The translations under genes were made by a program, and so were the position numbers. The notes under the pieces are model-generated. The model had not been told where the DNA came from. It was given only the letters and a program-made list of their open reading frames with translations, and made no database searches. This document shows, one piece after another, positions 32,845-47,156 of a stretch of 64,000 bases of DNA. The DNA comes from Bacilli bacterium (GTDB taxonomy: Bacteria; Bacillota_I; Bacilli_A; RFN20; CAG-826): assembly GCA_022641095.1 (NCBI GenBank), contig JALCDB010000004.1, positions 28,773-92,772 of the forward strand, given 5' to 3'. Each line of letters begins with the position of its first letter. Positions within the stretch are counted from its first letter, which is position 1.

Positions 32845-33243
32845 GGGGTCGTCCTGGTTTTGACGGGGAAATGACTCGGCTTTGACTGCAGTGGCGCGGT
32901 GAGCTTAAACACCAAACCAAAATAACTGATAACAGTTATGCTTATAGGAACGTTAACCACGTCTCCTATGCTTGCGCCTAATTAGGTAACCTACGGATTC
33001 CTTCCCTTCGCGGAAGGGCAGCACGTCCTCGATCCGATTCGTGTCTCTCGGGTCCTTCGGGCGTCATATCAAGACACTAAGCGGCGGTTCTTGGCTAAGG
33101 GCTTCCGACGAAAACGCGTTAGCCTCGCCATGGGGACTTGACTGTGTCTTGCCCCGTGGTCAAATTCGATGCAGTCTAAACTGTAGGCGTCATTGATGAG
33201 TCTTCTTCGGACAGGGGTTCGATTCCCCTCGACTCCACCACCA
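32845..33243 (+). ncRNA. ssrA: transfer-messenger RNA (tmRNA)
   Basis: The 5-prime end GGGGUCGUCCUGGUUUUGACGGGG and the 3-prime T-arm and acceptor GGGGUUCGAUUCCCCUCGACUCCACCA match tmRNA. An internal tag frame reads gat aac agt ... tat gct tgc gcc TAA, preceded by aaauaacu as in the Bacillus tmRNA. Confidence 0.93.
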
Positions 33244-33244
33244 A
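33225..33244 (+). repeat. attL core (cccctcgactccaccaccaa), part of the ssrA 3-prime end
   Basis: An identical 20-mer occurs at 46253-46272. Confidence 0.9.
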
Positions 33245-33252
33245 ATCAAAAA

Positions 33253-33276
33253 AGCCTAGACAAAATCTAGGCTTTT
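33253..33276 (+). terminator. ssrA terminator (element-borne copy)
   Basis: The stem agcctaga-caaaa-tctaggct is followed by ttt. Confidence 0.7.
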
Positions 33277-33319
33277 CTTAATTCATAACCGATTTTTTGA
33301 CAACACTTTTGACAACAAA

Positions 33320-34411
33320 TCATTTTTGCTTATTAAACGACAAATCTTTAGGATCGGTGGCCCAAAAATCGGAAATGACGGTTTTCTCGTCGGGAAGGAG
33401 ATCGGCGTAATACTTTTGAGTGGTGGCTTCGGAAGCGTGGCCAAGCCATCTTGACACATAGCGGGTGGAAACGCCGTGAGAGATAAGAGCGACGGAACAG
33501 GAATCGCGGAACTCATGGTTCTTGATGGCGGGAAGCCCGGCGGCTTCCGCGTACCTCTTCCTAAGCCGGTCAACCTCGGTTTGGCCCAAAAGCCTGTGGC
33601 GATAAAACGCGGAAGGAAAAAGGAACCCGTCGCCATGGGGATATTCCTTCAAAAGGGCCTGGACCTGCGGAACGGGAGGCAAACGGCGGATTGACGAGGA
33701 CGTCTTCGGGGTGGTGATGATCTGATGGCCTTCCGAGTTTTTTGCGTTAAGGCCGCGGGAAACGGAAAGCCAGCCGCCCTTGAAGTCAGAGCCCTTCAAA
33801 GCTAGGGCCTCCGAAATCCGAAGACCGTAATAAAAGAGAACCCCGAACAAAAGGCGGTCGCGCGGGCTGGCGATCGCCGACATGAAAACACGGAACTGGC
33901 CGATGGTGTAGAAGTGATAGACGTGAGGGGCCGGAACGTCTTTCTTGAAAGCGAAAACCCTCTCATAATCAAGAATCGCGTTATAGCGCTTCAAAAATTT
34001 AACCCAATGGCGGGAAACGGAAACAGCGCGACCCATGGATTTATTGCCACACCTGTTGAGCTTCAAATTGAAAACGTCAAGGAAGTTATTGTCCAACTTA
34101 TAAACATCAACACCACTAAAAACAGGAGCAATATAGCGAAGAAAGAACTTCCGGAAACCATAAACGGTCGAACCCTTCAAAGTCTCGAAAAGAGAACCGA
34201 AATAAACCCCGTAAAGATCATCGCAAAGAATAGGCTTAGCAAAAGCCGAAGACTTGCCGGAAAGAGAAGCGACGAAAACGGGCTCAAACGAAAGCGCAGC
34301 CTTCCTAGTCAAAAAAGGGCGTTCCGAAGTCGAATAGCAGTAAAAAAGCTTTCCTTTCCAGGAGTAACGGATAAACCAACTCTTCCGAGACTTTGAATAA
34401 TAAACGGCCAT
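33320..34411 (-). CDS. int: tyrosine recombinase / integrase
   Basis: 363 aa. Box I is GLRISEALAL. The C-terminus HEFRDSCSVALISHG...WLGHAS...TQKYY carries the H-x-x-R, GH and catalytic Tyr pattern. The gene is adjacent to attL. Confidence 0.9.
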   Translation of the reverse strand: MAVYYSKSRKSWFIRYSWKGKLFYCYSTSERPFLTRKAALSFEPVFVASLSGKSSAFAKPILCDDLYGVYFGSLFETLKGSTVYGFRKFFLRYIAPVFSGVDVYKLDNNFLDVFNLKLNRCGNKSMGRAVSVSRHWVKFLKRYNAILDYERVFAFKKDVPAPHVYHFYTIGQFRVFMSAIASPRDRLLFGVLFYYGLRISEALALKGSDFKGGWLSVSRGLNAKNSEGHQIITTPKTSSSIRRLPPVPQVQALLKEYPHGDGFLFPSAFYRHRLLGQTEVDRLRKRYAEAAGLPAIKNHEFRDSCSVALISHGVSTRYVSRWLGHASEATTQKYYADLLPDEKTVISDFWATDPKDLSFNKQK

Positions 34412-34503
34412 GAGACGCCTCCCTCTTTGAAAAACGGAAAAGAAATGCGATAATATAAATATCCAGTTGGCTAAGCGCGGCGACGCCGCGTGCGACTGGC
34501 TTT

Positions 34504-35742
34504 TTATTTGCCTTTTCCCGTCTTGGCTATCAACTTATCTTCAATGAACCGCATGACGGCATCGACGATGCCGCGAGGGGTATCGGTCGCGAACAGAGAC
34601 TTCCCGCCCCCATCGATGCCAACCATCATAAGACTTTGGATTTTGCCTTCGACATAAAGGCCATAAATCCGAAACGGAACATCGTCAAAGCCGTTCTTGC
34701 CGAAATAAAAGGTCTCCTCGGTGAGAAGGGACAAACCGTCTTGGCCAACCTCGGCATCACGATTAAGAAGGAAGAAAACCGGATCGCCTTTGTCCGCGCC
34801 GTCGAGGATCCTCTCCTTCGAGACGGACTCGAGTTTCTTCACTAAAGACAGATCGTACCAAACCTTCCAAGCGGGAACCTTCGCGGAGGCGGATTCAACG
34901 GAACCCCTTTTCGAGACGGCCTTCCCATCCTCGCGCTCCCTGAGCTTCTTGCGGAGGAAAGCGGCGAGCTTCCCGGAAAGGAGGGAGGGGGTCTTCGCCG
35001 ACTCGTAGACGTACAGGCTTTTCTTGCCAACCCAGAAAATGCCGTGGCAGGCGAACTCCTTCTTGGCCTTGTCGAAGCAAACGTCGAAACTCACCTTGAC
35101 CAATCCGGCGTCCGAGGAGAAGGATCCGGAGACTGTCTTGGAGCCCTCGGAACCGTAATGATCCTTCGGCGTTTCGGAAAGCGCGGGCGCGGCGAGAAAC
35201 GAACCGCAAAGAAGGAAAGCCCGCCCAAGGTACTCGTCGAAGCTTTTGGACTCAGCCTTAACCTTGTCGAGAAGCTTCTGGTCCCGGATCGCCTGAACGG
35301 TCATGTCGGGCCTGTAACCATCGATGCCGTCCTTTACGGGCAAAAGCTCGACGAGCTGCGTGAAGGAGTAATCCTTGTACTTCCCGCCCCAGGAAAGCCC
35401 CTTGCCGAACCTCTCGAAGACGGAGATGAAATTCTTGGTGCTCGTGCGTTTGAAGCCCAAGACCTTCTCGGAATAGTCATAGATGTCAGCATAGCCGCAG
35501 GCGGCGAGAACCCCCTTGTCATCGCGGAGGGCGGCGAGCTCCCGGCCGATATCGACGAAGCAGGAGGCGACTTGACGAGAGGCGGAAACAAGCCGCTGCG
35601 TGTGCTCGCCCAACTTAGTGGTCATATCCAAAAGAGATCTATCAGGAGCGACGAGAGCCCGGTCAGTCAACTGACCAACGGGCCTGCTTTCGACGACGAC
35701 GGGCGAAGCGGCTTTGGCAACCGCCTTTGCAACTTTTTTCAT
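34504..35742 (-). CDS. hypothetical protein (412 aa), element-encoded
   Basis: The ATG has a good context and the gene is tightly packed behind the upstream gene. The N-terminal third loosely resembles DUF3102/KorB-like helical regions. No firm motif was found. Confidence 0.55.
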   Translation of the reverse strand: MKKVAKAVAKAASPVVVESRPVGQLTDRALVAPDRSLLDMTTKLGEHTQRLVSASRQVASCFVDIGRELAALRDDKGVLAACGYADIYDYSEKVLGFKRTSTKNFISVFERFGKGLSWGGKYKDYSFTQLVELLPVKDGIDGYRPDMTVQAIRDQKLLDKVKAESKSFDEYLGRAFLLCGSFLAAPALSETPKDHYGSEGSKTVSGSFSSDAGLVKVSFDVCFDKAKKEFACHGIFWVGKKSLYVYESAKTPSLLSGKLAAFLRKKLREREDGKAVSKRGSVESASAKVPAWKVWYDLSLVKKLESVSKERILDGADKGDPVFFLLNRDAEVGQDGLSLLTEETFYFGKNGFDDVPFRIYGLYVEGKIQSLMMVGIDGGGKSLFATDTPRGIVDAVMRFIEDKLIAKTGKGK

Positions 35743-35746
35743 TTTG

Positions 35747-36397
35747 CTATTTTCCTTTATTTGTTTTTTCCGAATCTAAAGAGACATCAACTCTAGTAAT
35801 CCTCAAATCCGCAAAACGCTTATTCGCTTCCTCATCTTTCTTAAAAAAGCCGGACCAACGGCGGTAATCCCAGGAATAGAAACGGCCGGGAAAGGAGCAA
35901 ACAAATTCGCCGGAAGCCCTGCAAAGCCCCATGCGATGATCCGCGTAAAAAAAGAACAGCCGATCACCCTTTCGAACCTGAACGACGTCCAGTCCGTCGG
36001 GCTCCTCGCCGGCCACCTCCGAATAATCGGCAAGAACCAAACCGGCCGGATCCCGGAAATCTCGATAGAAATCGGCGACGGCGACAATGACAACGAACGA
36101 TGAACGGAAAACCTTTGCGAAATAAGTTTTTCTGACGACGTCGGACGCAGAGCGAAAAAGGTCTTTCTCTCTCTCTATGTCACGCGGAGTCTTCCCAAGG
36201 GAAAAACCGGCAAAAACAATCTCCTCGTAACGGTCAAAGCCGAGATCATCAAGGTTCTCGGTGCCGGAATAGTAATCAAGCAAGACCTTTTGGGCCTCTT
36301 TGATTCCCTTATAAAAAAGAGAAACGAAGAAAGTAAAAAACAAAAACAAAAACAAAACGCAATCGAAGACCAGCTGAACGACCTCAAACACATTCAT
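35747..36397 (-). CDS. hypothetical membrane-anchored protein (216 aa)
   Basis: The N-terminal TM helix is VFDCVLFLFLFFTFFVSLF and the RBS aaggaggg is upstream. Confidence 0.55.
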   Translation of the reverse strand: MNVFEVVQLVFDCVLFLFLFFTFFVSLFYKGIKEAQKVLLDYYSGTENLDDLGFDRYEEIVFAGFSLGKTPRDIEREKDLFRSASDVVRKTYFAKVFRSSFVVIVAVADFYRDFRDPAGLVLADYSEVAGEEPDGLDVVQVRKGDRLFFFYADHRMGLCRASGEFVCSFPGRFYSWDYRRWSGFFKKDEEANKRFADLRITRVDVSLDSEKTNKGK

Positions 36398-36491
36398 AAT
36401 TTACCCTCCTTGGATAAAAACTTTTTGTTATCAAACATCAACATCGCGTCCAACAGCCTTTAACGGAGCTAACGAAACCAATCACATACCA

Positions 36492-37865
36492 TCAGTTCCC
36501 CTCCTTCCTTCCTTTGAAGGATTCCGAATCGTATTTAGCGGAACCAAGCTTCAAGGCTTGCTTCCCGAAAAGGCTCTCGACTTCGGCCGGAATATCACGG
36601 AAAACATCAAACCATCCGGAAGCGTTTTTAAGACACTCTTCCTTGCTCGAGTAAACGGGAAGACCCTTCTCTTTGCGATAGTTGTTAACAACGATAAGGT
36701 CCTTTGACCCAAAACGGGAGAAACCCGAATTAAGCAAATAAATAAAGGAAGCCTCGGCGTTTTCCGGAGAGGCAAAAGCAAAACGGGAAAGAGCTTTCCC
36801 GGCATCGCGATTCAACCATTTTGCGTTGGAGCTAACGGTGGATTCCGCGCGAACCTGGCAGATGATCTTATGGGAAGAAACGCCCTTCAGGAACCGCTCC
36901 CACGGCCTCCAGACGGGATAACGCGACAAATGAGCCCGATCCGGATTACTAGAAAGAGAACGAAACGAAACGATACCGCCAAGCAAACCGGCGGCGAAGG
37001 CCGGAAACCGGTTCTCTTTCAGAGCCGCGGAAACCTCCGGAGCGCAAGCGACGGCATACCGGTCGTGATAACGCAACTCCCAACGGGTCCACGAAGGAAT
37101 GTCAACGACACAAGCCTTGGATTCGCGTTCCGCTTTCTTGTTATAAACGTTCAGCATCACGCAGGACTTGGACCCGATGTAATAGCTGACGGACTCGCCT
37201 ATGCCCTGCTTCTCGACGAGGGGGTCCTCAAGGGTCCCGTCGCGACCGCGGGAACGCAAAGAAGAAAGATAAGAACGGGATTCGATCTTCTTGATGACAC
37301 CGGAATAGGGAACGCGACCAGAGAAATCATCAACGGCAACGTCAATACGGGTGACATGGCCGCCGAAAAGCAAAGCCGTATCTATAACCAAGGCCCATTG
37401 CAAAGCGGTTGCCTTATCAAGCTCGGATTCAGGGACCCCTTCCGAATGCATTTCCAAATACCGATCAACAAACCGCCGCTCAAACGCGCGGCAACCAGAA
37501 CCGGAGACCTCAATAATCCACGTATGAGAAGAAGACAGACTAGCATTGCGGTCACCGCCCCATATCACGCAGGTTTCCTCATCGTAAAACCTCTTAGTCG
37601 TGTAGCCGTAACGGCCCTTTTCGTCGTCCACTTCGGCCCCGAAATCGAGGCAAAGCGGACCCGCGAGGTTTTTTGCAACTTCACAATCGGGCGAAAAGTC
37701 CCCGTCAAACCTGATAGTTAGATAGTCAATTAGCGTATTGAAATGTGGAGAACTACGGGGGGTGTTACCTACCCCCCGCGCGTGTGCGCCCGCACGCTGA
37801 TCCACGGAAACGGCTTCATTAGTGGCAACGACCTCGGAGGCCCGGGCGATCCCTTTCCCGCTCAT
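36492..37865 (-). CDS. rolling-circle replication initiator / relaxase of the Rep_trans family
   Basis: 457 aa. The motifs HVTRIDVAVDDF, YYIGSKSCVMLNVYNKKAE and WTRWELRYHD match the conserved blocks of pT181 RepC, CTXphi RstA and Tn916 Orf20-type proteins. The start overlaps the upstream stop as ATGA. Confidence 0.8.
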   Translation of the reverse strand: MSGKGIARASEVVATNEAVSVDQRAGAHARGVGNTPRSSPHFNTLIDYLTIRFDGDFSPDCEVAKNLAGPLCLDFGAEVDDEKGRYGYTTKRFYDEETCVIWGGDRNASLSSSHTWIIEVSGSGCRAFERRFVDRYLEMHSEGVPESELDKATALQWALVIDTALLFGGHVTRIDVAVDDFSGRVPYSGVIKKIESRSYLSSLRSRGRDGTLEDPLVEKQGIGESVSYYIGSKSCVMLNVYNKKAERESKACVVDIPSWTRWELRYHDRYAVACAPEVSAALKENRFPAFAAGLLGGIVSFRSLSSNPDRAHLSRYPVWRPWERFLKGVSSHKIICQVRAESTVSSNAKWLNRDAGKALSRFAFASPENAEASFIYLLNSGFSRFGSKDLIVVNNYRKEKGLPVYSSKEECLKNASGWFDVFRDIPAEVESLFGKQALKLGSAKYDSESFKGRKEGN

Positions 37866-40138
37866 CGGCCAAACCTCCTTCCACCACCGACGGAGGCACG
37901 GCCCTTTGCCGAACGTGCAGGCCGCCCGGCCTTTGCACGTCCGGCTATACGGGCCTTAGCGCCCAAAACGCTGCTTGCAGAGGAAGAAAGACGGTTTGCC
38001 GACAAATCGGCCACAACGTAGCTTCCCTGGGCTTCCCATTCGGCTCTAGTGTTTTCGACACCGGAGAACTTAGGCAATTCATTAAAGCCGCAAACAGCGA
38101 GGTTTTTCCCATCGTTCAAGAATCCGCTCATGCAGTTTGACTGATAACGATCGGAATAAGCCAAGAAGTAAGGAGCGTAGAAATCAACCTCGTCACCTTC
38201 GACCAAATCGCCGGAAGACGTGCAGGAAGCGGATTTAAGGCCGATTTTGTCATAACCATAACGATTGCGAACGAAATCAGAAACGGCGGAAGCATAGAAA
38301 GACAGGCGAGAAACGAGCCATGACAGCAACGTCGAATCCTCACGGGCAAAGCGGTAATTCCGATAGAAGCGGTCGCAAAAGGCCAAAGCCTTCTCAATGA
38401 TGACCGGCTCGATCCACCAAAACGGAACCGCGTTCCTTTCGGAGATGTTCTTAGGATCAACCGTGAAAATGCTCTGGGCAACACTAACGTCAGTCAAACT
38501 CAAAGCACCGGAATACTGCATATCCCCGAAAATCTTAAAGAAATTGACATTATCAATCGAAGCGATGTGGCCACCCAATTTGATGGAATAGCCGAAAAAA
38601 TCATTTTTTGGGTTGGCCACATCGTCGGAAACCTTCAAAGAAGAATTAGAATCGCGGTTGCCGCGTTCCTTGTCCTCTTCCGTAATGACATAAACGCCAG
38701 GCCCCGCAGAGGCGTTGAAAGCGTTGTTGGGATCGACGCGCAAACCAAGACGAAGCGAATCAAACCGGATAATGTGGGAGAAAGTGGAAAAACCCAGCAT
38801 ATCCCGGTTATCACGATGGAAAATATCGTCATTCCACAAGAACAAATGGCCTTGATCCATCCTGATTTCATCAGTACGAATAGAATAGTTTGAAGAGATG
38901 TAGGTATCGTAACGCGCATAAACGTAATAAGCCTGGGCATAGCATTTCAGCGCATGGGCGAGAGTGACGATTTTGCACCCATCGTAATAAGTGACCCTTT
39001 CGCTTCCGAGGTCGTAATGATAATGACGAAACCGAAAATACCTATAGATCAGACCGGCAAAAGAGCCGGCTTGCTCGATATTGAAAATCCTTCGACGATG
39101 GCCAGGACTCCAAGAAGAATACCAAAGGATCTCATTCTCGAACGCCTGCCAAGGAAAATCCGGAAACATCCTGGAATACTTCCGCATGATCCGATAGGAA
39201 TCTTGCCTATCGTTAAGACTTTGGAAAATAGCGAACAAAGTCATGAGCTTCGTCTTGCCGGCCCTCATCTTGCCCAGGATCAAGGTGAAAACGCCCGTGC
39301 AGGCCCTTAGGACGGCCTGACAAGCCGGAATGAGCCTTCGGGTTATGAACCTGTCGGCGCGGCGGAAGCAAAGCCAACGGAACGCAAAATAGCCGAGAAT
39401 GAGAAGCAGCCAAGCAGGAAGGAAAGACAACGAGAAGAAGAAACTCGTCAGAGTGGCCAAGACGAAATCGGCCAGGGAGAGAAGATCCATCGAGGCGAAG
39501 AAATAGAAGAAAAGCCCCACGAAATCCAAAACGTAGGAATAGGCGTTAAGGCCGTACAAAAGGAACAAGACAAGAGGCAAGCCCCAAAACGAGCGGAAAA
39601 GCCAGCCAACATAGCCAGAAACGCGTTTCAGGGCCTTCCCGACGAAGCCAAGGCCGGCCTTGAAACGGACGAGCTCTCGCGAACTAGCGAACCAAGGCAA
39701 GCCGGATTCCTCATAGTAAGAGCCAAGCAAAAGCTTCCCGATGAGCAAGGCGACGACCAAAAGCATAAGAAGCCTAACGACAAAATAGAGAAAAGAGGAT
39801 CCGCTAACCAAAAACCCCAAGAATTGCCCCTTGGTAAACAAAAGCCGGAAATAAACCAGAACGGAGGAAAAAAACGCCTTGGGATCGGGCGAGGCGATCC
39901 ACGACGGCAGCTCGCCCATGGAGGTTACATAGGAAAGCAAATAAGGAGAAGACGGTTTCCGGCCAAAGAACAGGGTAACGAAAGAGAAAAGCCTCTCAAT
40001 GAGAACAATGAAAGAAGAAAGCAGTCTAGGAAAAGCCCACGGTTCTACGAACACGACGAAAGCGAACGCGCCGCAGAAAATAAGAACGGCCAAGAAGTGC
40101 GGCCAAAGGACTTGAAGATAAGTGATAAACCTTTTCAT
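37862..40138 (-). CDS. polytopic membrane protein with cytoplasmic P-loop NTPase domain (Zot/pI-like or FtsK/TcpA-like)
   Basis: 758 aa. The N-terminal roughly 270 aa hold about 7 hydrophobic helices. Walker A is LILGKMRAGKT, a candidate Walker B is VYVITEED, and the C-terminal tail is Arg/Gly/Ala-rich. Confidence 0.65.
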   Translation of the reverse strand: MKRFITYLQVLWPHFLAVLIFCGAFAFVVFVEPWAFPRLLSSFIVLIERLFSFVTLFFGRKPSSPYLLSYVTSMGELPSWIASPDPKAFFSSVLVYFRLLFTKGQFLGFLVSGSSFLYFVVRLLMLLVVALLIGKLLLGSYYEESGLPWFASSRELVRFKAGLGFVGKALKRVSGYVGWLFRSFWGLPLVLFLLYGLNAYSYVLDFVGLFFYFFASMDLLSLADFVLATLTSFFFSLSFLPAWLLLILGYFAFRWLCFRRADRFITRRLIPACQAVLRACTGVFTLILGKMRAGKTKLMTLFAIFQSLNDRQDSYRIMRKYSRMFPDFPWQAFENEILWYSSWSPGHRRRIFNIEQAGSFAGLIYRYFRFRHYHYDLGSERVTYYDGCKIVTLAHALKCYAQAYYVYARYDTYISSNYSIRTDEIRMDQGHLFLWNDDIFHRDNRDMLGFSTFSHIIRFDSLRLGLRVDPNNAFNASAGPGVYVITEEDKERGNRDSNSSLKVSDDVANPKNDFFGYSIKLGGHIASIDNVNFFKIFGDMQYSGALSLTDVSVAQSIFTVDPKNISERNAVPFWWIEPVIIEKALAFCDRFYRNYRFAREDSTLLSWLVSRLSFYASAVSDFVRNRYGYDKIGLKSASCTSSGDLVEGDEVDFYAPYFLAYSDRYQSNCMSGFLNDGKNLAVCGFNELPKFSGVENTRAEWEAQGSYVVADLSANRLSSSASSVLGAKARIAGRAKAGRPARSAKGRASVGGGRRFGR

Positions 40139-40509
40139 CGTTCGACCCCTCTCTTGAACAAGTAGGAAAAGTCATAAAGGGAATAGAAATCGCCGTTGCC
40201 GAGAACGCGGATAACGAAATCCGTCTCGCCGTCGCAGTCCAAAGCTCCGGAGGAATACTCATAGGAGAAATCGAAGGAGACCTTCCCGGAAACGAGCCGG
40301 CCAGAAGAACCGTCGCGAATGAGGACGTAATGATCGGAAGCCGAAACATAAACGCCGGGCAAAGCATCGGCGGAGACGCCCGCGCCTTTTTCCAGAGACG
40401 CGCAGGCGGAAACGCAATAGACGGCGAAAACGGTTGTCAGGGCAACCGTCAAGACCTTCCAAAACCGGAAGGATTTGTTCGGATCGGAACTTCGGCCGAA
40501 ATGAAGCAT
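40135..40509 (-). CDS. small lipoprotein (124 aa)
   Basis: The signal and lipobox read TVFAVYCVSAC, and the RBS aggagg lies 6 nt upstream. An ATGA overlap links it to the NTPase gene. Confidence 0.65.
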   Translation of the reverse strand: MLHFGRSSDPNKSFRFWKVLTVALTTVFAVYCVSACASLEKGAGVSADALPGVYVSASDHYVLIRDGSSGRLVSGKVSFDFSYEYSSGALDCDGETDFVIRVLGNGDFYSLYDFSYLFKRGVER

Positions 40510-40527
40510 GAGACACCTCCTTTAGTG

Positions 40528-42210
40528 TCAGCGTTTGCGGATCTTCTTAGTTTTGGCCTCCAATTTCCTAATTCGCCGGCCGTTCCTCAACGAAGAAAGG
40601 CCGAACGCAAAGCCAAAAGCTTTGTAAAGCAGACAGCAAACGCCGACGAAGCCAAGAACGCCGCCGGCGATCTTCAAAGCGGCCAAGACCTTATCCCATG
40701 CGGAAGCCAGGTTATCGACGACCCCGTTGACGTGAATAGTGTAGGGATGCGTGATGTGGGCCACGGTCGTGTCAACGGGCGTGTCGACGCAAGAAAAAGT
40801 GATATCACCCCCGAGGAGATCGTTGTGGAACGTGAGAGTCAGAAGCCGGACCGAGTCTATCTGGTGGCATGAGGTGTTGGTGTAGTAGCCTTCGGCGCAG
40901 AAGCCGCCGCCGACGACATGGCGCTCATAAGGCCTATCGTTGAGAAGGATCGCGTAGTCGTAGGATCCGGAACCTTCGGAATCGGAGTAGTCGCGGTATT
41001 CCCGGCAAAGATCGACGAAGGGCTTAACGCGCGCCCCATTGGTCTCCTTGAAGGACTCCTCGGCGCTCAAGGCGGCCAAGGAGGCGTCGTCGAGCCTCTG
41101 GATCGAATCGAAGGCGTAAACGAGATCGTCGTGGCCGAGAAGCCATTTGTTGACGGGGTCGCCGCCGTCGGGGGCGGTAACGACGGTAACGCCGGAAGAC
41201 ACAACATCATAAACAGTTGGCTTGGAAGCGACCGAGTACGATTCATAGGTAATGCCGGAAACCGCTTTGGCGGGATAAGAAGGGAAGGGCCCGGAAAACT
41301 CGCGCCACTTATCGCCCAGATAATCAAGATAATCCGAAGGATCGCCATAAAGGCCGCCGTAAACATGGCCTTCATTCAGGTTCCGCCAATCGCAAAACAA
41401 AGGGCGGTGCTCGCTGGCGACATAAGAGGAAACGAAATATGAAACGCGAACGCTTTTGAGCAAATCAAGGCCGGTGATAGCGGAAGAAGAATCGCCCAGC
41501 TTGAAAAAACACCAGAAGTTCTCCAAAGCTGAGGCCGGGAAGTTCCCGGACCGGGGAACGAGAACGCAATCCAAAACCGCTAATTTCCTTTTTATCACCA
41601 CGTAATCGTCCGAGAAGCTTCGGGCGATTGGGTCAACGCCATCGGCCACGTCCTGCCAGCAGATCTCGAAATCGGAGCAAGCGCGAAAGAAAGGGACGTA
41701 GAAAGAAGAAAGGCCGCCCAACAGGGAAACCGCGACGCGATGACAGGAGCCGACGACGTACGGATAAGCGTTCCTGATAACCGACTTCCGGAAGCACCCG
41801 AAATCGGCCGGGGCGGTGCTGATGGCGAAGTTGGAGAAGGAGTCGTGATACGTGCCGTCGTCTGAAACGGCGGAGACGAAACTCAAAGAGGCGAAGCCAA
41901 AAAGGTCGGAATCGCCGGAAACGCTGGAATAATAATAGAAATAGAGGTCGCCTTTGCAAGGAACGATCTGGAAGAACCGGAAATCCGAATATGGGTCCGC
42001 CTCGGAGCCGGAACGGACCGAGGAACGAGGAAGGAGCCATGCCAGAGTCTGGCCCTCACAACCGGCTTCCTTGGCCTTCTCATCGAACATGGTCTGAAGA
42101 TCCACGGCGGCGTTGGAGGTCTCGATCTCGATATTGGGAACCGAGGCAAGGCAAGGAACCGACAATGAAGCGATAAGAGCAACGGTGGCAGCGAAAAGTG
42201 ACAAACTCAT
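40528..42210 (-). CDS. secreted protein with C-terminal membrane anchor (560 aa)
   Basis: Starting at ATG 42210 gives the signal peptide MSLSLFAATVALIASLSVPCLA. The C-terminal TM is GVLGFVGVCCLLYKAFGFAFGL, followed by a basic tail. The Arg-rich upstream ORF extension overlaps the preceding gene. Confidence 0.65.
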   Translation of the reverse strand: MSLSLFAATVALIASLSVPCLASVPNIEIETSNAAVDLQTMFDEKAKEAGCEGQTLAWLLPRSSVRSGSEADPYSDFRFFQIVPCKGDLYFYYYSSVSGDSDLFGFASLSFVSAVSDDGTYHDSFSNFAISTAPADFGCFRKSVIRNAYPYVVGSCHRVAVSLLGGLSSFYVPFFRACSDFEICWQDVADGVDPIARSFSDDYVVIKRKLAVLDCVLVPRSGNFPASALENFWCFFKLGDSSSAITGLDLLKSVRVSYFVSSYVASEHRPLFCDWRNLNEGHVYGGLYGDPSDYLDYLGDKWREFSGPFPSYPAKAVSGITYESYSVASKPTVYDVVSSGVTVVTAPDGGDPVNKWLLGHDDLVYAFDSIQRLDDASLAALSAEESFKETNGARVKPFVDLCREYRDYSDSEGSGSYDYAILLNDRPYERHVVGGGFCAEGYYTNTSCHQIDSVRLLTLTFHNDLLGGDITFSCVDTPVDTTVAHITHPYTIHVNGVVDNLASAWDKVLAALKIAGGVLGFVGVCCLLYKAFGFAFGLSSLRNGRRIRKLEAKTKKIRKR

Positions 42211-42695
42211 AACTGACCTCCCACGACGTAGCAAGGCTGATAAGTCGAATCGGAGGACGGGTCGAACCCATAGGGGGCCTCGCCGTCTTGCATAGCGGCC
42301 GAGACGAACCAAACGCCGGCCTTCGAAATAGAAACCGGGGAACTGACCACAAGGCCACCCAAGGCGGAAGTCGTGGCGGTCAAGGAGTTCTGCGGATCCC
42401 CGAGCCAAGCCCCGAAGGCGAGATCGCCGACCCCATCCCCGAAGGAGGACCAAAAAGCGAGATCGAGGAAACGGGCCGACTGGTCCTGACCGTCAAGGGC
42501 GACCAAATCCTCTGACGAGAAAGAGGCCGAGACCGCCGAAGCGGAGCCGGCCTTGTAAGTCAGCTCAAGGACGACCGGAAACCCGTCAACGACGGCCGGG
42601 ACGCCGATAAGCAACTTAGACGGGTCAACCGACTTAACGGACGCGGAACAGGAGCACAAAGCCAGACAGGCAAGGACGACAAGTCTCTTTTTCAT
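42207..42695 (-). CDS. lipoprotein (162 aa)
   Basis: Starting at ATG 42695, the sequence MKKRLVVLACLALCSC carries a lipobox, and the RBS gggagg is upstream. An ATGA overlap links it to the downstream gene. Confidence 0.65.
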   Translation of the reverse strand: MKKRLVVLACLALCSCSASVKSVDPSKLLIGVPAVVDGFPVVLELTYKAGSASAVSASFSSEDLVALDGQDQSARFLDLAFWSSFGDGVGDLAFGAWLGDPQNSLTATTSALGGLVVSSPVSISKAGVWFVSAAMQDGEAPYGFDPSSDSTYQPCYVVGGQL

Positions 42696-42704
42696 AAAGC
42701 CTCC

Positions 42705-42763
42705 CTCGTTCCTTCTGAAACAGGAAGAACGAGCGAAGCCCCTCCCCAAGGGCGGGGGAGGGG
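42705..42763 (-). other. two tandem hairpins between cistrons
   Basis: One stem is cccctcccc/ggggagggg (9 bp, 42739-42763). The other is ctcgttccttc/gaagaacgag (42705-42733). Neither is followed by a U-tract. Confidence 0.5.
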
Positions 42764-42775
42764 CGGGCACAGGGA

Positions 42776-43756
42776 TCAGCTGAACTGGACGGAAGAGGAG
42801 TCGGCGGAAAGCGAGGTCGGCGGGACGTAGGCCCCGACGAGGAAAGAGTAGGAGGCCTCCTCGAAGACGACGGACTCGGGGGAGGCGGCGGAGGAATACC
42901 CGCCCAGCTCCTTGGCGTTCCCGTACCAAATAAGGACGGAATGGCCGTCGGAGGCGTCCAGGCGCCTATCGAAGGAGGTCCCGTCCGGGCCCTTCGTGGC
43001 CGAGGGGAGGGCGGACGGATCGCTCGCGGTGACCTCGAAGATCAAAGTCAGATAGAGAGGGCGCGAGTCGTCGAACGACCAAGTGACGGTCTTGGTCGGG
43101 AAGTCCCAGGCGAGGCAGCAGAACGGGGACGACTGGGATTGGAAATCGGAGCCGGCGAAATTGACGAAGGAGAGGAGATCCGGAGAAGAAAGATCGCCAG
43201 TTCCGTACGAAGAGTAAAGATCGTCGGCGAGGGTCATCCTGACGAGGCTGAGCTTGGTGACGAAGTTGTAGACGGTGACCGGGATGGTGACGACGTCGGA
43301 GGCTAGGGCCTCAGGATGGGCGGTGACGTTCACGGTCCCGCTGAACTCGCCAGCGGCCAAAGTCAGAGTGACGGCCGAGCCGGAAAGGACCCTGCCGGCG
43401 CTGACGGCGATTTTCGCGGGATCGGAAGACTCAACCAGGACGTACTTGTCGGTGGCGTTCGCCGGCTCGATGGTGAAGACGACGGTCTTAGTGGCGCCGA
43501 CCTGAACGGATTTCTGAATACCTCCGGCGCCGAAGACGGTTCCGCCGTAGACCTTGGCGGAGAGAGAGCCGGACGAAAGAGTAGTCGTCGGAGCGTCGCC
43601 GTCGGTAGAACCGGAAGTTGCCGGGATAATCTTCCCGATCTCCGAATCGACCCAATCGCGAACCGTCTTGTTAAGCGAGTAAACGGCGGCGGCGGCCCCG
43701 GCGATAAGGGCCACGGAAGCAAAGATGGAGAGCCAAACACGACCACGTTTCTTCAT
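42776..43756 (-). CDS. N-terminally anchored surface protein with bacterial Ig-like (Big_2-type) region
   Basis: 326 aa. The TM helix is WLSIFASVALIAGAAAAVY. The segment VQVGATKTVVFTIEPANATDKYVLVESSDPAKIAVS..VTLT..GTVNVTA resembles a Big_2 domain. The RBS aggagg is upstream. Confidence 0.6.
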   Translation of the reverse strand: MKKRGRVWLSIFASVALIAGAAAAVYSLNKTVRDWVDSEIGKIIPATSGSTDGDAPTTTLSSGSLSAKVYGGTVFGAGGIQKSVQVGATKTVVFTIEPANATDKYVLVESSDPAKIAVSAGRVLSGSAVTLTLAAGEFSGTVNVTAHPEALASDVVTIPVTVYNFVTKLSLVRMTLADDLYSSYGTGDLSSPDLLSFVNFAGSDFQSQSSPFCCLAWDFPTKTVTWSFDDSRPLYLTLIFEVTASDPSALPSATKGPDGTSFDRRLDASDGHSVLIWYGNAKELGGYSSAASPESVVFEEASYSFLVGAYVPPTSLSADSSSVQFS

Positions 43757-43858
43757 ATAAAATACCTCCTAGGTATCAGGGCATGAACGCCCTTGGGAAG
43801 CCCCCCAAGGAAAGGGGGCCTCGCAAGGGAGCCTTGGTCTCCCAAGGCCCCGAACGGA

Positions 43859-44404
43859 TCAGACAGCGGGTCCGACGGGCGAATCGGATTCGGCTTTCAG
43901 AGACTCGTCGAACGAATCGTCGGCGGCGGTCCCATCAAACGGGATCGGCGCGTATTCCTTCCCAATAAGGCCCTTGGAAAGGCGCAGAAGAAGAAGCTGA
44001 ACGAACGGATCGGAGGGTTGGAGCCGATAGGAGAGGATAAGAAGCCTGTCGAAGTAGAGCTCGACCATGTAGGAAGACCGTTCCTTGCCTTGATCGTTTT
44101 GGCCCCAAACAAACTTCGTGATCCGAACCTTCGCCTTGGCGCGGAACTGCTCGGGAACGAACTTCCCGTTTTGGATAGTCACGAGAAGGCCGTACTGGTT
44201 ACCAGTCAATACGATGTGATACTTGGTGATGAAGTCGAAAATGACGTCGGCGGAATAGTTGTCGTTGACGGTCTTGGTGCGCCTGTCTGTGCGGCTCGAC
44301 TTCGTGATCAGAACGTCAATAGTTGGCAACTTGGCAAGCGACGTAGTATCGAGAGAACGCAGACCGACGAACTTAGCAGCCTCGGATTTTTCTTGGTTTT
44401 CCAT
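43859..44404 (-). CDS. hypothetical protein (181 aa) with acidic C-terminal tail, possible ssDNA-binding protein
   Basis: ATG 44404 is preferred over GTG 44440. The C-terminus is PIPFDGTAADDSFDESLKAESDS. No firm motif was found. Confidence 0.45.
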   Translation of the reverse strand: MENQEKSEAAKFVGLRSLDTTSLAKLPTIDVLITKSSRTDRRTKTVNDNYSADVIFDFITKYHIVLTGNQYGLLVTIQNGKFVPEQFRAKAKVRITKFVWGQNDQGKERSSYMVELYFDRLLILSYRLQPSDPFVQLLLLRLSKGLIGKEYAPIPFDGTAADDSFDESLKAESDSPVGPAV

Positions 44405-44448
44405 TTTGGAAACCTCTTTTCTGGCGCGTAGGTGCGCCACCCCTTTAT

Positions 44449-44464
44449 GCTTAGGGCCCTAAGC
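44449..44464. repeat. perfect 16-bp palindrome gcttagggccctaagc
   Basis: The palindrome was read directly. It lies in the only sizeable non-coding gap of the long operon, near a 6-bp-arm dyad at 44422-44439 and a 10-bp palindrome at 44527-44536. Confidence 0.9.
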
Positions 44465-44494
44465 CCATGAAGCCGTGCGGAACCAAGCGGAAAC

Positions 44495-44522
44495 TTGACA
44501 AACGCGCACGATAAGCGATAAT
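44495..44522 (+). promoter_or_regulatory. candidate promoter pointing antisense to the element operon
   Basis: TTGACA, a 16-nt spacer, then GATAAT on the + strand. No credible + strand CDS lies downstream. Confidence 0.35.
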
Positions 44523-44563
44523 GGGATCGCTAGCGAGAATGAGCCGCCCAAACGCGGACGTCG

Positions 44564-44869
44564 CTAGTTTTTCTTTCGCCTTTTGCCCGAAACGAACGAA
44601 TCGACATAAGCCTCGTCGGCCTTGCCCAACCGCCAACCGGGAATCGGCTTTCTGAACGAATGGTGGGAATCGGAGCGAAGCTCTCTCCTCAAATAGCTCT
44701 TGCGCGGATCCCGGGGATCGGGATTGGACGACAGCTCGTGGCATTTGTGACCGCCGGAGTAAGGGGAATGCGTGAGCCCGATGAAGTCGTAGGCGCGGCC
44801 ATCGTCGCCGACGATCAGAGAAGGGTGATTGGACTTCCGGTATTTGCGGAAATGCTTTTTGAAAGGCAT
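44564..44869 (-). CDS. small basic protein (101 aa)
   Basis: The ORF is tightly packed, Lys/Arg-rich at both ends and has a His-rich centre (THSPYSGGHKCHE). Its function is unknown. Confidence 0.5.
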   Translation of the reverse strand: MPFKKHFRKYRKSNHPSLIVGDDGRAYDFIGLTHSPYSGGHKCHELSSNPDPRDPRKSYLRRELRSDSHHSFRKPIPGWRLGKADEAYVDSFVSGKRRKKN

Positions 44870-44882
44870 GGCGGCGGCCCGA

Positions 44883-45116
44883 TCACCGAACGGCTTTCTT
44901 CCTGGCGGCGGCCCACTTGGCGCGCTGCTCCCCGAAGTACTCGCACATAGCCCTCCAGGCAGGAGTGCGGCTGTCCAAGCCCTTTCGGAGGGGGATCCCG
45001 TAATTGTGGTAATGGCCGTCCTCCGGGGTCGATGCGACCATGTAGAAGGCGCCTTTGCCGAGGCGGCCGACGTTCTCGACCCTGAACCTCTTCCTACCGT
45101 CCGTGAAGTAAGCCAC
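44883..45116 (-). CDS. small protein (77 aa)
   Basis: The ORF is tightly packed in the operon and no motif was recognised. Confidence 0.45.
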   Translation of the reverse strand: MAYFTDGRKRFRVENVGRLGKGAFYMVASTPEDGHYHNYGIPLRKGLDSRTPAWRAMCEYFGEQRAKWAAARKKAVR

Positions 45117-45118
45117 GG

Positions 45119-45355
45119 TCAGCGCCGCCTTTCCCTGAAATAGGCGCGGGCGGCCTTCAGGACATCCTCGTTCTGCCTATGGCCGGCGGGGCTTTCGCGG
45201 ACGCCTTCGCAGCGGAGGAACGAAACGTCGTAGGCCGTGCCTTTGCGGTCGCCCTCCACCCAAAGCGTGAAATTGTGGCAACCTTTCGGGGCCGCGGGGT
45301 TGTCCTCGAAATTTGTCACTTTCCTTTTCTTGCCTTTGAACCAAATCCAGGCCAT
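45119..45355 (-). CDS. small protein (78 aa)
   Basis: The ORF is tightly packed in the operon and no motif was recognised. Confidence 0.45.
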   Translation of the reverse strand: MAWIWFKGKKRKVTNFEDNPAAPKGCHNFTLWVEGDRKGTAYDVSFLRCEGVRESPAGHRQNEDVLKAARAYFRERRR

Positions 45356-45356
45356 A

Positions 45357-45491
45357 TCAGCGGACCCCTTTCCTGCAGTCGATCAGAGCCGAATCTTTGT
45401 AGCCAAGGCGATGAAGGACGGCCCGATAGCCGTTCCAATAGACCTTCTTCCGGAGAATCGACTCAAACGAACGCTTTTTAGATAACTTCAT
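45357..45491 (-). CDS. possible 44-aa basic peptide at the head of the operon (Cro/Xis-like position)
   Basis: The sequence is my own translation: MKLSKKRSFESILRKKVYWNGYRAVLHRLGYKDSALIDCRKGVR. The stop lies 1 nt before the next ATG. The gggagg RBS is 12 nt away, across a small hairpin. Confidence 0.3.
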   Translation of the reverse strand: MKLSKKRSFESILRKKVYWNGYRAVLHRLGYKDSALIDCRKGVR

Positions 45492-45633
45492 AGGTCTTTT
45501 TGACCTCCCAAACCTGTTTCAGACAACGAATCTCTAAGAAAGAAATGTAATCTACCTCGTAACATTAACTAAAGTTTGCAACACAAAAACTAACAAATCA
45601 ACAAAAAAGTTATGCAAAACGTACAATTTAGAC

Positions 45634-45903
45634 GTGAAATGGGAACGTTTAGCCGAATTAAGAAAAGAAAAAGGATTAACCCAAGAAGAGCTGGGCAATA
45701 CCTTTAACGTAACCAGACACACGGTGACAATGTGGGAAACCGGAAACACGGAACCGGATTACGCGACACTGATCAAACTTGCCGATTTTTTAGAAGTGTC
45801 GACTGACTATCTTCTAGGCCACCAAGCAAAAATCTCTTTAACCAAAGAGCAAAAAGAAACTCTAAAAAAAGCAGAAGAGATAATCAATGAAATAACCAAA
45901 TAG
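45634..45903 (+). CDS. XRE-family HTH regulator (cI-like repressor candidate)
   Basis: 89 aa. The HTH LRKEKGLTQEELGNTFNVTRHTVTMWETG is present. The gene is divergent from the long operon. The start is GTG. Confidence 0.8.
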   Translation: MKWERLAELRKEKGLTQEELGNTFNVTRHTVTMWETGNTEPDYATLIKLADFLEVSTDYLLGHQAKISLTKEQKETLKKAEEIINEITK

Positions 45904-45914
45904 AAAGGAAAACA

Positions 45915-46136
45915 ATGATCATCGATTACATTTTATCAGCCTCAGAATCAACAAACGACAGCATGGTAGGGCACATCACCACCCCGGAAACGACTCACAC
46001 ACCAGGGCTAATAGACGTGCCTTGGGCAATACCAGTTTTCGTAGGAATGGCGATAACGATAGTTGTTTTACTTGTCATCATCATAGTCAGGAAACAAAAC
46101 CAAAACTTTTTGAAAAAAGAAAAAAAAGACAAATAA
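45915..46136 (+). CDS. single-pass membrane protein (73 aa) with basic C-terminal tail
   Basis: The TM helix is WAIPVFVGMAITIVVLLVIIIV and the tail is RKQNQNFLKKEKKDK. The RBS aaaggaaa is upstream and the gene is co-directional with the XRE gene. Confidence 0.5.
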   Translation: MIIDYILSASESTNDSMVGHITTPETTHTPGLIDVPWAIPVFVGMAITIVVLLVIIIVRKQNQNFLKKEKKDK

Positions 46137-46252
46137 AGCCATACCACACTTTGACAACGAATCCATTCTTTAAGAATGAAAAAAGCTAACAAAACAATAA
46201 CAATAAGAAAACCAAAGATAGCAACTGAATAACATAAAAACAAGTGAGTAAT

Positions 46253-46272
46253 CCCCCTCGACTCCACCACCA
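46253..46272 (+). repeat. attR core (displaced copy of the ssrA 3-prime end)
   Basis: The 20-mer is identical to 33225-33244. Confidence 0.9.
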
Positions 46273-46280
46273 AGCAAAAA

Positions 46281-46303
46281 GCCTAGATTACATCTAGGTT
46301 TTT
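46281..46303 (+). terminator. presumed original ssrA terminator
   Basis: The stem cctagat-tac-atctagg is followed by tttttt. Confidence 0.7.
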
Positions 46304-46467
46304 TATTTTTCAATACCACAGTTTTGCCACATGTTTATCCGTGTTTTCCCGATTTTTGGCCATTGATCTTGGATTGGAAATCAAAGGTTTTTTGAAGCGG
46401 TTTCTCTTTTTTGTCTTTCCTTGTCATATCGTTTTCCATCGTTCAAACGGTTTTCTTGTTCCTTGCG

Positions 46468-46851
46468 ATGAGCGATGCCAAGAAAGGCGGACGCAACGAA
46501 ATACGCGATGGGGTTATCGCCGTTTCTTTCTCGCTTGGGGCCACGCTTCTGTCGGGTTTTGCCAACATCGTGTTTTGCTCAGCCTCCAGCAGAATAACCG
46601 ACCATGTCATCTCGCTTTGGATATCAAGCGCGTTAGGCGCTCTTTATATTCTCTATTTCGTTAAGTTGAAAGACATGGATTCGGCCGTTGACATAGATAT
46701 CCCGACCAGCTCGATCAAAATCGATCTAGACAAAGCCGACGCTCTTAAGAAATACAAAGATTTGCTTGATGCCGGCGCAATAAGCCAAGACGAATACGAC
46801 AAAAAGAAAAAGCGATTTATTGAAATGGGTTATTTTTTCGTTTTCCGATAG
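46468..46851 (+). CDS. membrane protein with C-terminal SHOCT-like domain
   Basis: Two TM helices are followed by DKADALKKYKDLLDAGAISQDEYDKKKKRFIE, the SHOCT pattern. ATG 46468 is preferred over TTG 46411. Confidence 0.55.
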   Translation: MSDAKKGGRNEIRDGVIAVSFSLGATLLSGFANIVFCSASSRITDHVISLWISSALGALYILYFVKLKDMDSAVDIDIPTSSIKIDLDKADALKKYKDLLDAGAISQDEYDKKKKRFIEMGYFFVFR

Positions 46852-47119: not shown

Positions 47120-47156
47120 GAATAAAAAAGGCATTGTCTTCCTGAAAGGCTAATCC

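Follow-up and report, generated by a model that had tools for sequence, protein, structure and literature searches.

The 3′ end of ssrA, the gene for transfer-messenger RNA (tmRNA), is a textbook site of integration, and the prophages and islands residing there combine a tyrosine integrase gene beside ssrA with a repeat that duplicates the tmRNA end and a displaced copy of that end at the far border. Actinomycete integrative and conjugative elements (AICEs) of the pSAM2 type and MobT-type integrative and mobilizable elements (IMEs) comprise 10-14 kb with an integrase at a tRNA-type site, a rolling-circle replication (RCR) Rep or a relaxase of the Rep_trans fold, one membrane nucleoside triphosphatase (NTPase) and a repressor. 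A small circular genome and an RCR Rep, and no capsid protein, are found in HRPV-1 (FJ685651), an alphapleolipovirus with an archaeal host. The plasmavirus L2 (Plasmaviridae; L13696) is temperate, has a genome of about 12 kb and is released without lysis, while its relatives integrate in tRNA genes (PMC12662186). Inoviruses, too, commonly integrate and are released without lysis (PMC6813254). Here we analyse a stretch of 64,000 nt (the window) from a Bacilli bacterium (GCA_022641095.1, contig JALCDB010000004.1, positions 28,773 to 92,772 of the forward strand), which harbours an element of 13,029 bp in the 3′ end of ssrA. Its integration mechanism is identical to that of the ssrA-borne islands and prophages, but its cargo differs and fits no described phage, integrative and conjugative element (ICE) or island family. 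The integration is thus ordinary; what is out of the ordinary is the type of element and the large, unannotated family to which it belongs, the hallmark of which is a membrane NTPase without known relative. Whether the element is a temperate virus that dispenses with a protein capsid is, in our judgement, an evenly balanced question.

A complete tmRNA gene was placed by both ARAGORN and Rfam (Table 1), the only one that ARAGORN found in the window, and it is intact because the element supplies a replacement for the 3′ end. The 20-mer CCCCTCGACTCCACCACCAA is present in exactly two copies in the window (33225-33244 and 46254-46273) and did not occur as a repeat in any of 100 dinucleotide-preserving shuffles. 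Mismatches border both copies on both sides, which sets the exact core at 20 bp, and the element together with one core measures 13,029 bp. A preliminary description, drawn up from the sequence alone, had proposed an insertion in the ssrA 3′ end bounded by a 20-bp direct repeat. This is confirmed, with two corrections: the right copy, given as 46253-46272, is located one base higher, and the repeat takes in 16 nt of the tmRNA end and four downstream bases, not 19 nt and one. The same description let the integrase gene start 76 nt from the tmRNA end; the distance is correct, but the gene is on the minus strand and it is the stop codon that lies there. Most of the segment had furthermore been called visibly richer in GC than its surroundings. 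We found a slight excess: the element has 52.7% GC, its two flanks have 50.3% and 49.2%, and only around 42-44 kb does the value climb to 60-61%. The direction of the difference thus holds while its extent was overstated.

Each core is followed by a similar hairpin (AAAAAGCCTAGA...TCTAGG, then a T-run). Judging from its sequence, the element-borne copy is likely a terminator that acts in both directions, for ssrA on one side and for the integrase operon on the other. The motif TTGACAAC occurs four times in the window, three of these within about 110 bp of the element ends, and sister elements carry the analogous ACCACACTTTTACCACA at both ends. The integrase would be expected to bind at these arm motifs.

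Evidence for mobility of the element comes from the same site in its unoccupied state. When metagenome contigs were scanned for the core, four matches were obtained, two of which were informative. One of them, L093 (JGI Ga0172378_10271831, 1,315 bp), is 99.85% identical to window positions 46251-47543 over 1,293 bp and continues beyond the core with 25 nt equal to the tmRNA-specific positions 33200-33224, not with the sequence left of attR. This contig is an empty site in the same species, in which ssrA is joined directly to position 46274 onward, precisely the arrangement by which the insertion was to be verified. The other informative contig, L092, originates from a related species (tmRNA end 81% and ABC transporter 77% identical), and ordinary genes follow its ssrA. 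Look-ups with exact proteins turned up at least nine contigs, from several samples, in which the site is occupied by an identical copy of the element. L097, from another sample, equals window positions 33215-46283 at 100% identity (13,069 bp) and ends exactly 10 nt outside each core, and contigs L110 and L113, from another sequencing run, end at the same two points. The assemblies holding these three contigs were presumably built with k = 31. If so, contig ends at the core plus 10 nt correspond to k-1 = 30 and therefore to a graph with two continuations, and occupied and empty sites would coexist in the respective samples.

An attP circle of the exact element was not found in scans of metagenome and viral contigs for the core or in exact-protein look-ups for the integrase, the 560-aa protein (p560) and the 73-aa protein (p73), which yielded only integrated or att-broken contigs. 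All open reading frames (ORFs) of the element are intact. We state with confidence that the locus holds a 13,029-bp temperate mobile element in the ssrA end, and that the species also occurs with this site empty. It is equally well supported that the tyrosine integrase recombines the 20-bp core of the circular element with the identical ssrA 3′ end, and that integration rebuilds the tmRNA end from the copy carried by the element and puts the element-borne terminator behind it.

Circular forms became apparent among the sister elements. A word-indexed search returned 23 relatives of the NTPase, and the close ones (70-82% identity) reside on contigs of 11-12.8 kb. One sister element, whose NTPase is 77% identical to that of the window, is circularised: L002 (ENA) has a terminal overlap of 141 bp and L003 (JGI, different sample) one of 19 bp, both close to 12,673 bp, and after rotation there are 0 mismatches between the two. 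L003 is broken exactly at the 19-bp core CTCTTACGCTCCACCAAAC. In L002 and L004, the sequence runs unbroken from the integrase gene into the repressor end, and the junction holds CTCTTACGCTCCACCAAAC, which resembles a tRNA or tmRNA 3′ end, and then the same hairpin as in the window element. A circular attP junction, the second check that had been suggested, was accordingly observed as a closed circle over the integrase-to-repressor junction in a sister element and not for the exact element. Integrated sisters were also seen. L100 sits inside an 834-kb contig in the 3′ end of a tRNA-Thr(GGT) gene, where the two copies of a 16-bp repeat are spaced by 13,636 bp and GTGTGGTAAAAGTGTGGTAT is found close to either end, and L010 and L011 abut tRNA-Ala. 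From the circles and the tRNA-type sites of the sisters it follows that the family integrates in tRNA-type 3′ ends and exists as circles.

Two further observations concern the borders of these elements. L010 and L011, which derive from metagenome-assembled genomes (MAGs) of Bacilli from sheep rumen, carry the same structural block, NTPase and Rep_trans gene and end at tRNA-Ala(CGC); they are devoid of a recognisable integrase, and an AlwI-type restriction endonuclease gene is found at their other border. Furthermore, a module of about 60 nt, consisting of the terminator hairpin and then ACCACAGTTTTGCCACA, is located on the host side of attR (window 46276-46331). The same module forms the integrase-proximal arm of every sister element, including the one in tRNA-Thr (L100:18527-18594; L002:7110-7190), and is present in L093 and, downstream of ssrA, in the element-free related species (L092:82-160). 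As it is shared by the host flank and the sister arms, the native ssrA terminator has the look of an arm that a former element of the same family left behind.

With the exception of two plus-strand genes, all genes of the element are arranged in one tight array on the minus strand. The order of transcription is ORFs of 44, 78 and 77 aa, followed by the genes for proteins of 101, 181, 326, 162, 560 and 124 aa, the 758-aa NTPase, Rep, proteins of 216 and 412 aa and the integrase. A Rep_trans initiator, a membrane NTPase, exported proteins and orphans had been read from the sequence beforehand, and all are present, integrase and Rep_trans being recognised by Pfam. Searches of the element proteins against Pfam, PHROGs and NCBIfam revealed no capsid, portal, terminase, tail, lysin, holin, VirB4, coupling-protein or MOB family, in full agreement with the absence of such signatures noted earlier, and PADLOC detected no defence family. 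The verdict of the preliminary description that the gene content is unusual was correct and is the more interesting half of the finding.

Table 1 Coordinates of the element, its attachment sites and its genes in the window
Feature	Position	Strand	Evidence or remark
ssrA (tmRNA), integration target	32845-33240	+	ARAGORN; Rfam RF00023, 108.5 bits, full length
attL core, last 16 nt of tmRNA + CCAA	33225-33244		exact 20-mer, 2 copies
Element-borne hairpin, A-run before, T-run after	33250-33276		perfect 11-bp inverted repeat; hairpin shared by all sister elements (integrase-proximal arm)
Two direct TTTTGACAAC repeats, putative arm-type integrase sites (P′ arm)	33295-33316		
Tyrosine integrase, 363 aa	33320-34411	-	PF00589 1.6e-17; phrog_1 1.4e-37; ends 76 nt from attL
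412-aa accessory protein, element-specific	34504-35742	-	only N-terminal region matches phrog_15077 (unknown function); PADLOC negative
216-aa protein, one N-terminal membrane helix	35747-36397	-	hydropathy
Rep, rolling-circle initiator, 457 aa	36492-37865	-	Rep_trans PF02486 6.7e-24; Rol_Rep_N PF18106; phrog_453
758-aa membrane NTPase, hallmark	37862-40138	-	hydropathy, alignments, AlphaFold2
124-aa predicted lipoprotein (p124), lipobox VSAC	40135-40509	-	read from sequence
560-aa exported protein (p560): signal peptide, C-terminal anchor, basic tail	40528-42210	-	start MSLSLFAAT, as in gene calls and homologues
162-aa predicted lipoprotein, lipobox VLAC	42207-42695	-	sequence; 71-84% identity in sisters
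326-aa protein: N-terminal anchor/signal (segment 7-25), Ig-like (Big_2-type) domain	42776-43756	-	
181-aa soluble beta-rich protein (193 aa if start 44440)	43859-44404	-	homologues in near clade
101-aa strongly basic protein (p101), net charge +12	44564-44869	-	no family match
Three small basic early ORFs, 77, 78 and 44 aa	44883-45491	-	ORFs, gene calls, translation; no family match
Divergent control region, leftward operon versus repressor operon	45492-45633		gene layout; promoter-like matches weak
XRE/RstR-like repressor, 89 aa	45634-45903	+	PF01381 1.6e-15
73-aa single-pass membrane protein (p73), basic C-tail (segment 39-57)	45915-46136	+	hydropathy; co-oriented with repressor
ACCACACTTTGACAAC, putative arm-type site (P arm)	46143-46158		
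attR core, original ssrA 3′ end, displaced	46254-46273		exact 20-mer; host flank follows, as in empty-site contig L093

The hallmark protein begins with six to seven membrane helices (approximately residues 1-287, according to hydropathy and an AlphaFold2 (AF2) model), which are followed by a P-loop domain and an Arg/Gly-rich tail. It features a Walker A motif (GKMRAGKT) and a Walker-B-like motif (VITEEDKE), and K295 of the former and E487 of the latter (ITEEDKE) are invariant in 86 sequences. The protein yielded no match in Pfam, PHROGs, NCBIfam or PADLOC or in searches of the PDB with profiles of 22 and 86 sequences. Even at E <= 1, none of 22 family members contained an FtsK_SpoIIIE, TraB, VirD4, TcpA, VirB4 or Zot Pfam domain. 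The AF2 model (predicted local distance difference test score, pLDDT, 73) was compared with PDB and BFVD by Foldseek, which returned nothing at E <= 0.001 and low TM-scores. The weak fold matches in the PDB comprise HerA (E = 0.08), a clamp loader, B204 and Zot. In BFVD, the best match was the unnamed entry A0A894JLK1 (E = 4.8e-3), and ORF3 of L2 came second (probability 0.96, E = 0.024). When the NTPase profile was aligned by hhalign with L2 ORF3, HRPV-1 VP8 and two inovirus Zot proteins, little aligned beyond the Walker A loop.

The NTPase gene is surrounded by genes for exported and basic proteins. The gene for the 124-aa lipoprotein is located directly upstream of it in every sister element. 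The neighbouring p560, with membrane segments at residues 3-21 and 508-526, matched no family in Pfam or PHROGs, and the search of 5.8 billion sequences gave only four homologues, which do not suffice for modelling. Its topology is like that of L2 ORF13/14 and HRPV-1 VP4, which makes it a candidate spike or adsorption protein. The 326-aa protein matches phrog_215, a structural protein with an Ig domain, at 2.8e-9, and its homologue in L002/L003 gave a faint match to Big_2. The basic p101 is a candidate for binding or condensing DNA, and the small early ORFs of 77, 78 and 44 aa may encode Cro- or Xis-like regulators. For the 181-aa protein, a single-stranded DNA-binding protein or capsid protein was considered; it has only five homologues, its AF2 model reached a pLDDT of 64, the other four models stayed below 40 and Foldseek returned nothing meaningful. 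As to the replication genes, Rep matches the Rep_trans plasmid initiator 4cij of the PDB at 2.6e-9, and a search for a double-strand origin or nick site revealed no convincing conserved hairpin.

Between Rep and integrase, the sister elements have a single 148-aa gene in place of the genes for the 412- and 216-aa proteins (34504-36397). The 216-aa protein shares 35-41% identity with the product of a gene of 146-164 aa that lies between the lipoprotein and 560-aa genes in L002, L004 and L005 and is missing from the structural block of the window element; the 216-aa gene may be a displaced copy or paralogue of this gene. On the plus strand, the repressor finds its best NCBIfam match in phage_RstR (66 bits, below the cut-off of 80). 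The adjacent p73 is 56% identical in L002-L004, and in L100 a 186-aa gene is found in its place. Because it is transcribed with the repressor and replaced in L100, p73 fits superinfection exclusion better than a function as coat protein, and we regard it as a candidate for the former and unlikely to be the latter.

The NTPase defines a large family. An exhaustive profile search yielded 1,242 clusters at 50% identity, 623 of them at E <= 1e-30, and most of the best 150 cluster proteins listed have 700-800 aa. In a scan of one genome per GTDB species, 345 loci were detected. Most carriers belong to Clostridia of gut and rumen, among them Christensenellaceae and Oscillospiraceae, or are Bacilli MAGs, and some genomes have several copies, such as MGBC157066 with three loci. 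In the nearest genomic relatives (L009-L012 and L006; NTPase identity 37-40%), the gene order is p193, p326, lipoprotein, p560-like, p124-like, NTPase, Rep_trans. A remote group, in which the ORFs next to the NTPase gene (25-29% identity) were clustered, encodes upstream of the NTPase several Ig-like proteins that are paralogues of one another and anchored at the N-terminus, a further anchored protein of 200 aa and small basic proteins. Downstream, these loci encode an HUH-type Rep with the motifs FVTLTY, HFHGLF and YIIKYLEK and a weak match to phrog_3419, and at the far end a LexA-like repressor. In 22 of 80 distant loci (e.g., L020, L054, L057 and L061), a gene for an IS30-like DDE transposase follows those for the NTPase and the HUH Rep, at the position of the tyrosine integrase.

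Apart from the NTPase, p101 is the sole protein that the window element has in common with the distant Clostridia group. It aligns with family 11 of the distant neighbours (hhalign, 99.2%) and has tblastn matches in 11 distant loci; when surface proteins were compared between the two groups in the same way, a weak alignment of p124 with family 3 was the only addition. What is kept in order throughout are the NTPase, the membrane-anchored Ig-like proteins and a basic protein, while Rep_trans is swapped for an HUH Rep, the tyrosine integrase for an IS30-like DDE transposase and the XRE for a LexA-like repressor. That this ordered module persists across hundreds of loci despite the exchange of replication and integration genes argues for a core function of the element rather than cargo. 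A conserved structural module combined with exchanged replication modules is the usual pattern of virus families. The family is without any relative on 72,556 plasmids (PLSDB) and is represented by two contigs in IMG/VR and by one record in INPHARED, an unannotated 57-kb scaffold apparently with host flanks. This near-absence indicates that virus-detection pipelines do not recognise these elements. No description of the family of NTPase elements was found in the literature; our coverage of it was incomplete, and an earlier description is possible.

A further property of the window element is its strand composition. The AT skew of the coding strand (33320-45355, minus) is -0.21 and falls to -0.59 at third codon positions, where A accounts for only 7%. 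The closest clade, made up of the window element, L003-L005 and L100, has values between -0.21 and -0.23, compared to 0.00 for host genes (third positions -0.22), -0.10 for two inovirus genomes and +0.05 for L2. Such a skew fits a replicon that spends time single-stranded, and the genome of the closest clade may be single-stranded. L006, L009, L011 and the Clostridia group do not show the excess of T over A, which is therefore a property of a clade and not proof; as a single-stranded DNA signature of the entire family it was rejected.

L2 is one of the described viruses that come closest. It is temperate, forms a circle of about 12 kb as the sister elements do, has a tyrosine integrase gene beside attP and carries all genes on one strand. 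Its envelope proteins ORF13/14 are built like p560 (signal peptide, C-terminal anchor, basic tail), and ORF13 also possesses Ig-like domains. The gene order in L2 is small ORFs, ORF13/14, ORF1-2, the P-loop ORF3, ORF4, integrase and attP, so that ORF3, the second-best BFVD fold match of the NTPase, lies between envelope genes and integrase. However, ORF3 has only 312 aa and is without a long polytopic domain, unlike the 758-aa NTPase. When the 11 protein families of the element were compared with the 14 ORFs of L2 by hhalign, only the integrase proved homologous. Replication of L2 starts at DnaA-box origins and relies on the replisome of the host (PMC12662186); the element encodes a Rep_trans initiator instead. 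The L2 genome has 32% GC and is without strand skew, and its host is the wall-less Acholeplasma. In size, integrase and type of att site the element would fit Plasmaviridae; its replication mode differs. HRPV-1 is also similar in gene order, which in that virus runs from the membrane protein VP3 and the spike VP4, which has a signal peptide, through small ORFs to the NTPase VP8 and Rep. VP8 comprises 343 aa without a membrane domain; it was the only protein compared as a measure of homology to the Pleolipoviridae core, and just its Walker A loop aligned in hhalign. Viruses related to pleolipoviruses are reported to retain the structural module and NTPase while their replication genes differ (PMC7547991).

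The Zot-like pI and small structural proteins of inoviruses and the markers of elements dependent on a type IV secretion system (T4SS) and of TraB-type elements are wanting, as detailed below, and what remains is a cassette of basic proteins, surface proteins, a membrane motor, lysogeny-type control and exchangeable replication modules. A non-lytic virus without capsid was therefore judged the most economical explanation. We put it at an even balance that the element is such a virus, temperate, tail-less and the representative of a new family, with a membrane-bounded particle favoured over a filament. In its favour we count the gene order, which matches gut inoviruses and HRPV-1 and is comparable in L2, the conserved module with its exchanged replication genes, the fold match to L2 ORF3, the lack of NTPase relatives on plasmids and the strand skew of the closest clade. 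The broader proposition is more tentative and, to our minds, somewhat doubtful: that the several hundred relatives are proviruses of an unrecognised family or higher taxon of non-lytic Bacillota viruses, lacking tail and capsid, in the form of a membrane-bounded nucleoprotein bearing lipoproteins and Ig-domain spikes and loaded by a new polytopic NTPase. In the proposed life cycle, the XRE/RstR-type repressor, transcribed divergently together with the small membrane protein, would silence one long operon, and the excised circle would be copied by the Rep_trans initiator in rolling-circle mode. The conserved module would constitute a morphogenesis or export apparatus: basic proteins could coat the DNA; a role in the envelope or in adsorption would fall to the proteins displayed on the cell membrane, namely the lipoproteins, the Ig-domain protein and the 560-aa protein with its type-I topology; and the P-loop NTPase with its polytopic membrane domain might propel the genome into the membrane or across it. 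The resulting particle would be a membrane-bounded nucleoprotein as in L2 and the pleolipoviruses, and less likely a filament.

Several points weigh against this interpretation. No circle of the exact element was recovered. For none of its proteins could homology to a virion protein of a known virus be demonstrated, L2 shares only the integrase with it, and the fold matches of the modelled NTPase are weak, as described above. The T-over-A skew does not extend to the more distant members, and the virus collections contain only the two IMG/VR relatives and the one chromosomal-looking INPHARED record. In addition, many carriers (Christensenellaceae, Oscillospiraceae) are presumably walled, which is an assumption; given such walls and no encoded lysin or holin, the release of an enveloped particle through the wall is unexplained.

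This last difficulty is better accommodated by a conjugation-like element of the pSAM2 type that operates without a T4SS; following excision and rolling-circle replication, the NTPase would act as a single-protein translocase pumping DNA into an attached recipient, and the Ig proteins and lipoproteins would serve as adhesins or in entry exclusion. We regard this main rival as unlikely, even though a size of 11-14 kb, the tRNA-type att site and the inventory at large resemble what is generally known of AICEs and MobT ICEs, no capsid, lysis or small coat protein is present, the NTPase combines a polytopic domain and a motor with a basic Arg/Gly tail that could bind DNA, and its weak fold matches include translocases of the HerA/FtsK superfamily. 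The element is distinguished from AICEs and MobT elements by the lack of an FtsK_SpoIIIE, TcpA, VirD4 or VirB4 domain and of a cell-wall hydrolase. The 22 family members searched at E <= 1 are devoid of the TraB-like FtsK_SpoIIIE translocase that marks AICEs, HerA being no more than a weak fold match, the PDB profile searches were negative, and Pfam and NCBIfam revealed none of the T4SS markers of ICEs and IMEs, i.e., MOB or MobT relaxase, coupling protein and VirB4. Rep scores 32 bits against NCBIfam MobT, for which the cut-off is 600, and the plasmids of PLSDB are free of relatives. To our knowledge, TraB-type transfer is known only from mycelial actinomycetes, which we also count against this explanation.

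A divergent filamentous phage (Tubulavirales-like), in which the NTPase would act as pI/Zot, p560 as a pIII-like protein and p124 as an analogue of pVI to extrude a single-stranded DNA filament, is distinctly unlikely in our view. It draws on the Rep, since the nearest Reps among 50,697 phage records are those of small gut Inoviridae (Dulem virus 64/68, bajarodino viruses; 23-27% identity), and on the repressor, which scores best against the RstR family and is thereby reminiscent of the RstA/RstR modules of CTXphi-type phages. The Dulem viruses 64 and 68 also have a parallel gene order (small ORFs, an exported protein of about 520 aa, a small protein, Zot, Rep and a reversed repressor) to that of p560, p124, NTPase, Rep and repressor in the element. 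The strongly T-rich coding strand is as in single-stranded DNA phages, Zot is among the weak fold matches, and the integration and non-lytic release common in inoviruses fit as well. However, the gut inoviruses have 5.7-6.5 kb, a Zot of 199-254 aa and several ORFs of 50-85 aa, compared to 13 kb without a Zot signature here. Inoviruses are recognised by a Zot-like pI with one or two membrane helices and by structural proteins of 30-90 aa with a single helix (PMC6813254). The element does possess a rolling-circle initiator, yet its NTPase has no Pfam match, to Zot or otherwise, and six to seven helices, and the hhalign comparison with two inovirus Zot proteins was negative. The proteins of 44, 77, 78 and 101 aa are without a hydrophobic helix, and the late operon neither encodes a single-helix protein of 30-90 aa nor leaves room for one; the sole candidate, p73, lies on the repressor strand, is transcribed with the repressor and is replaced in L100. 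The conserved neighbours in the distant group likewise include no small hydrophobic proteins. Quite improbable appears an integrative rolling-circle plasmid or mobilizable island that moves with the aid of a helper and carries the exported proteins and NTPase as cargo, for example as a surface or secretion system beneficial to the host. Most genes are indeed of unknown function, only excision, integration and replication are recognisable functions, and L010 and L011 have no recognisable integrase; but the ordered module outlasts the swapping of replication and integration genes over hundreds of loci, shares one repressor-controlled operon with Rep and Int and occurs in multiple copies in some genomes (three in MGBC157066). 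It is hardly credible that the segment is a remnant which no longer moves and that its repeat arose by chance or through faulty assembly. The failure to recover a circle of the exact element would agree with it, but it is effectively refuted by the empty site, and the shuffles (0 of 100), the 100% identical 13,069-bp copy elsewhere, the intact ORFs and the sister circles contradict it as well.

The NTPase gene is always found in the same kind of repressor-controlled cassette of 12-14 kb, mostly in uncultured gut and rumen Clostridia and Bacilli. If these cassettes are viruses, common temperate, non-lytic phages of gut Bacillota that form no capsid have been overlooked, and Plasmaviridae would no longer be an isolated curiosity. 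The elements would then be a bacterial counterpart of the archaeal pleolipoviruses and widely extend the plasmavirus lifestyle beyond Acholeplasma. If they instead constitute a transfer system without T4SS, a new conjugation-like mechanism exists in Firmicutes. The window provides a clean and apparently active example, with identical copies in several samples, an empty site and defined att and arm sites.

Several features of the host flanks deserve mention. The tag frame of the tmRNA (32928-32981) encodes the peptide DNSYAYRNVNHVSYACA according to ARAGORN. It ends with YACA, which is unusual, as tmRNA tags normally have hydrophobic ends such as LAA or YAFA. The interval 46411-47948, which separates attR from two ABC-transporter genes, contains the genes for a membrane protein with a SHOCT domain and for a short PhoH-like ATPase; different genes occupy the matching interval in the related species represented by L092. 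An ORF of 767 aa in the housekeeping region (21343-23646) has no match in Pfam or NCBIfam. Finally, mfd is followed directly by tilS and then by ftsH (594-7859), the order in the flank being mfd-tilS-ftsH...lysS...dnaB, which points to Bacillota. In many Firmicutes, genes intervening among mfd, tilS and ftsH are to be expected, and their tight succession here hints at a compact genome.

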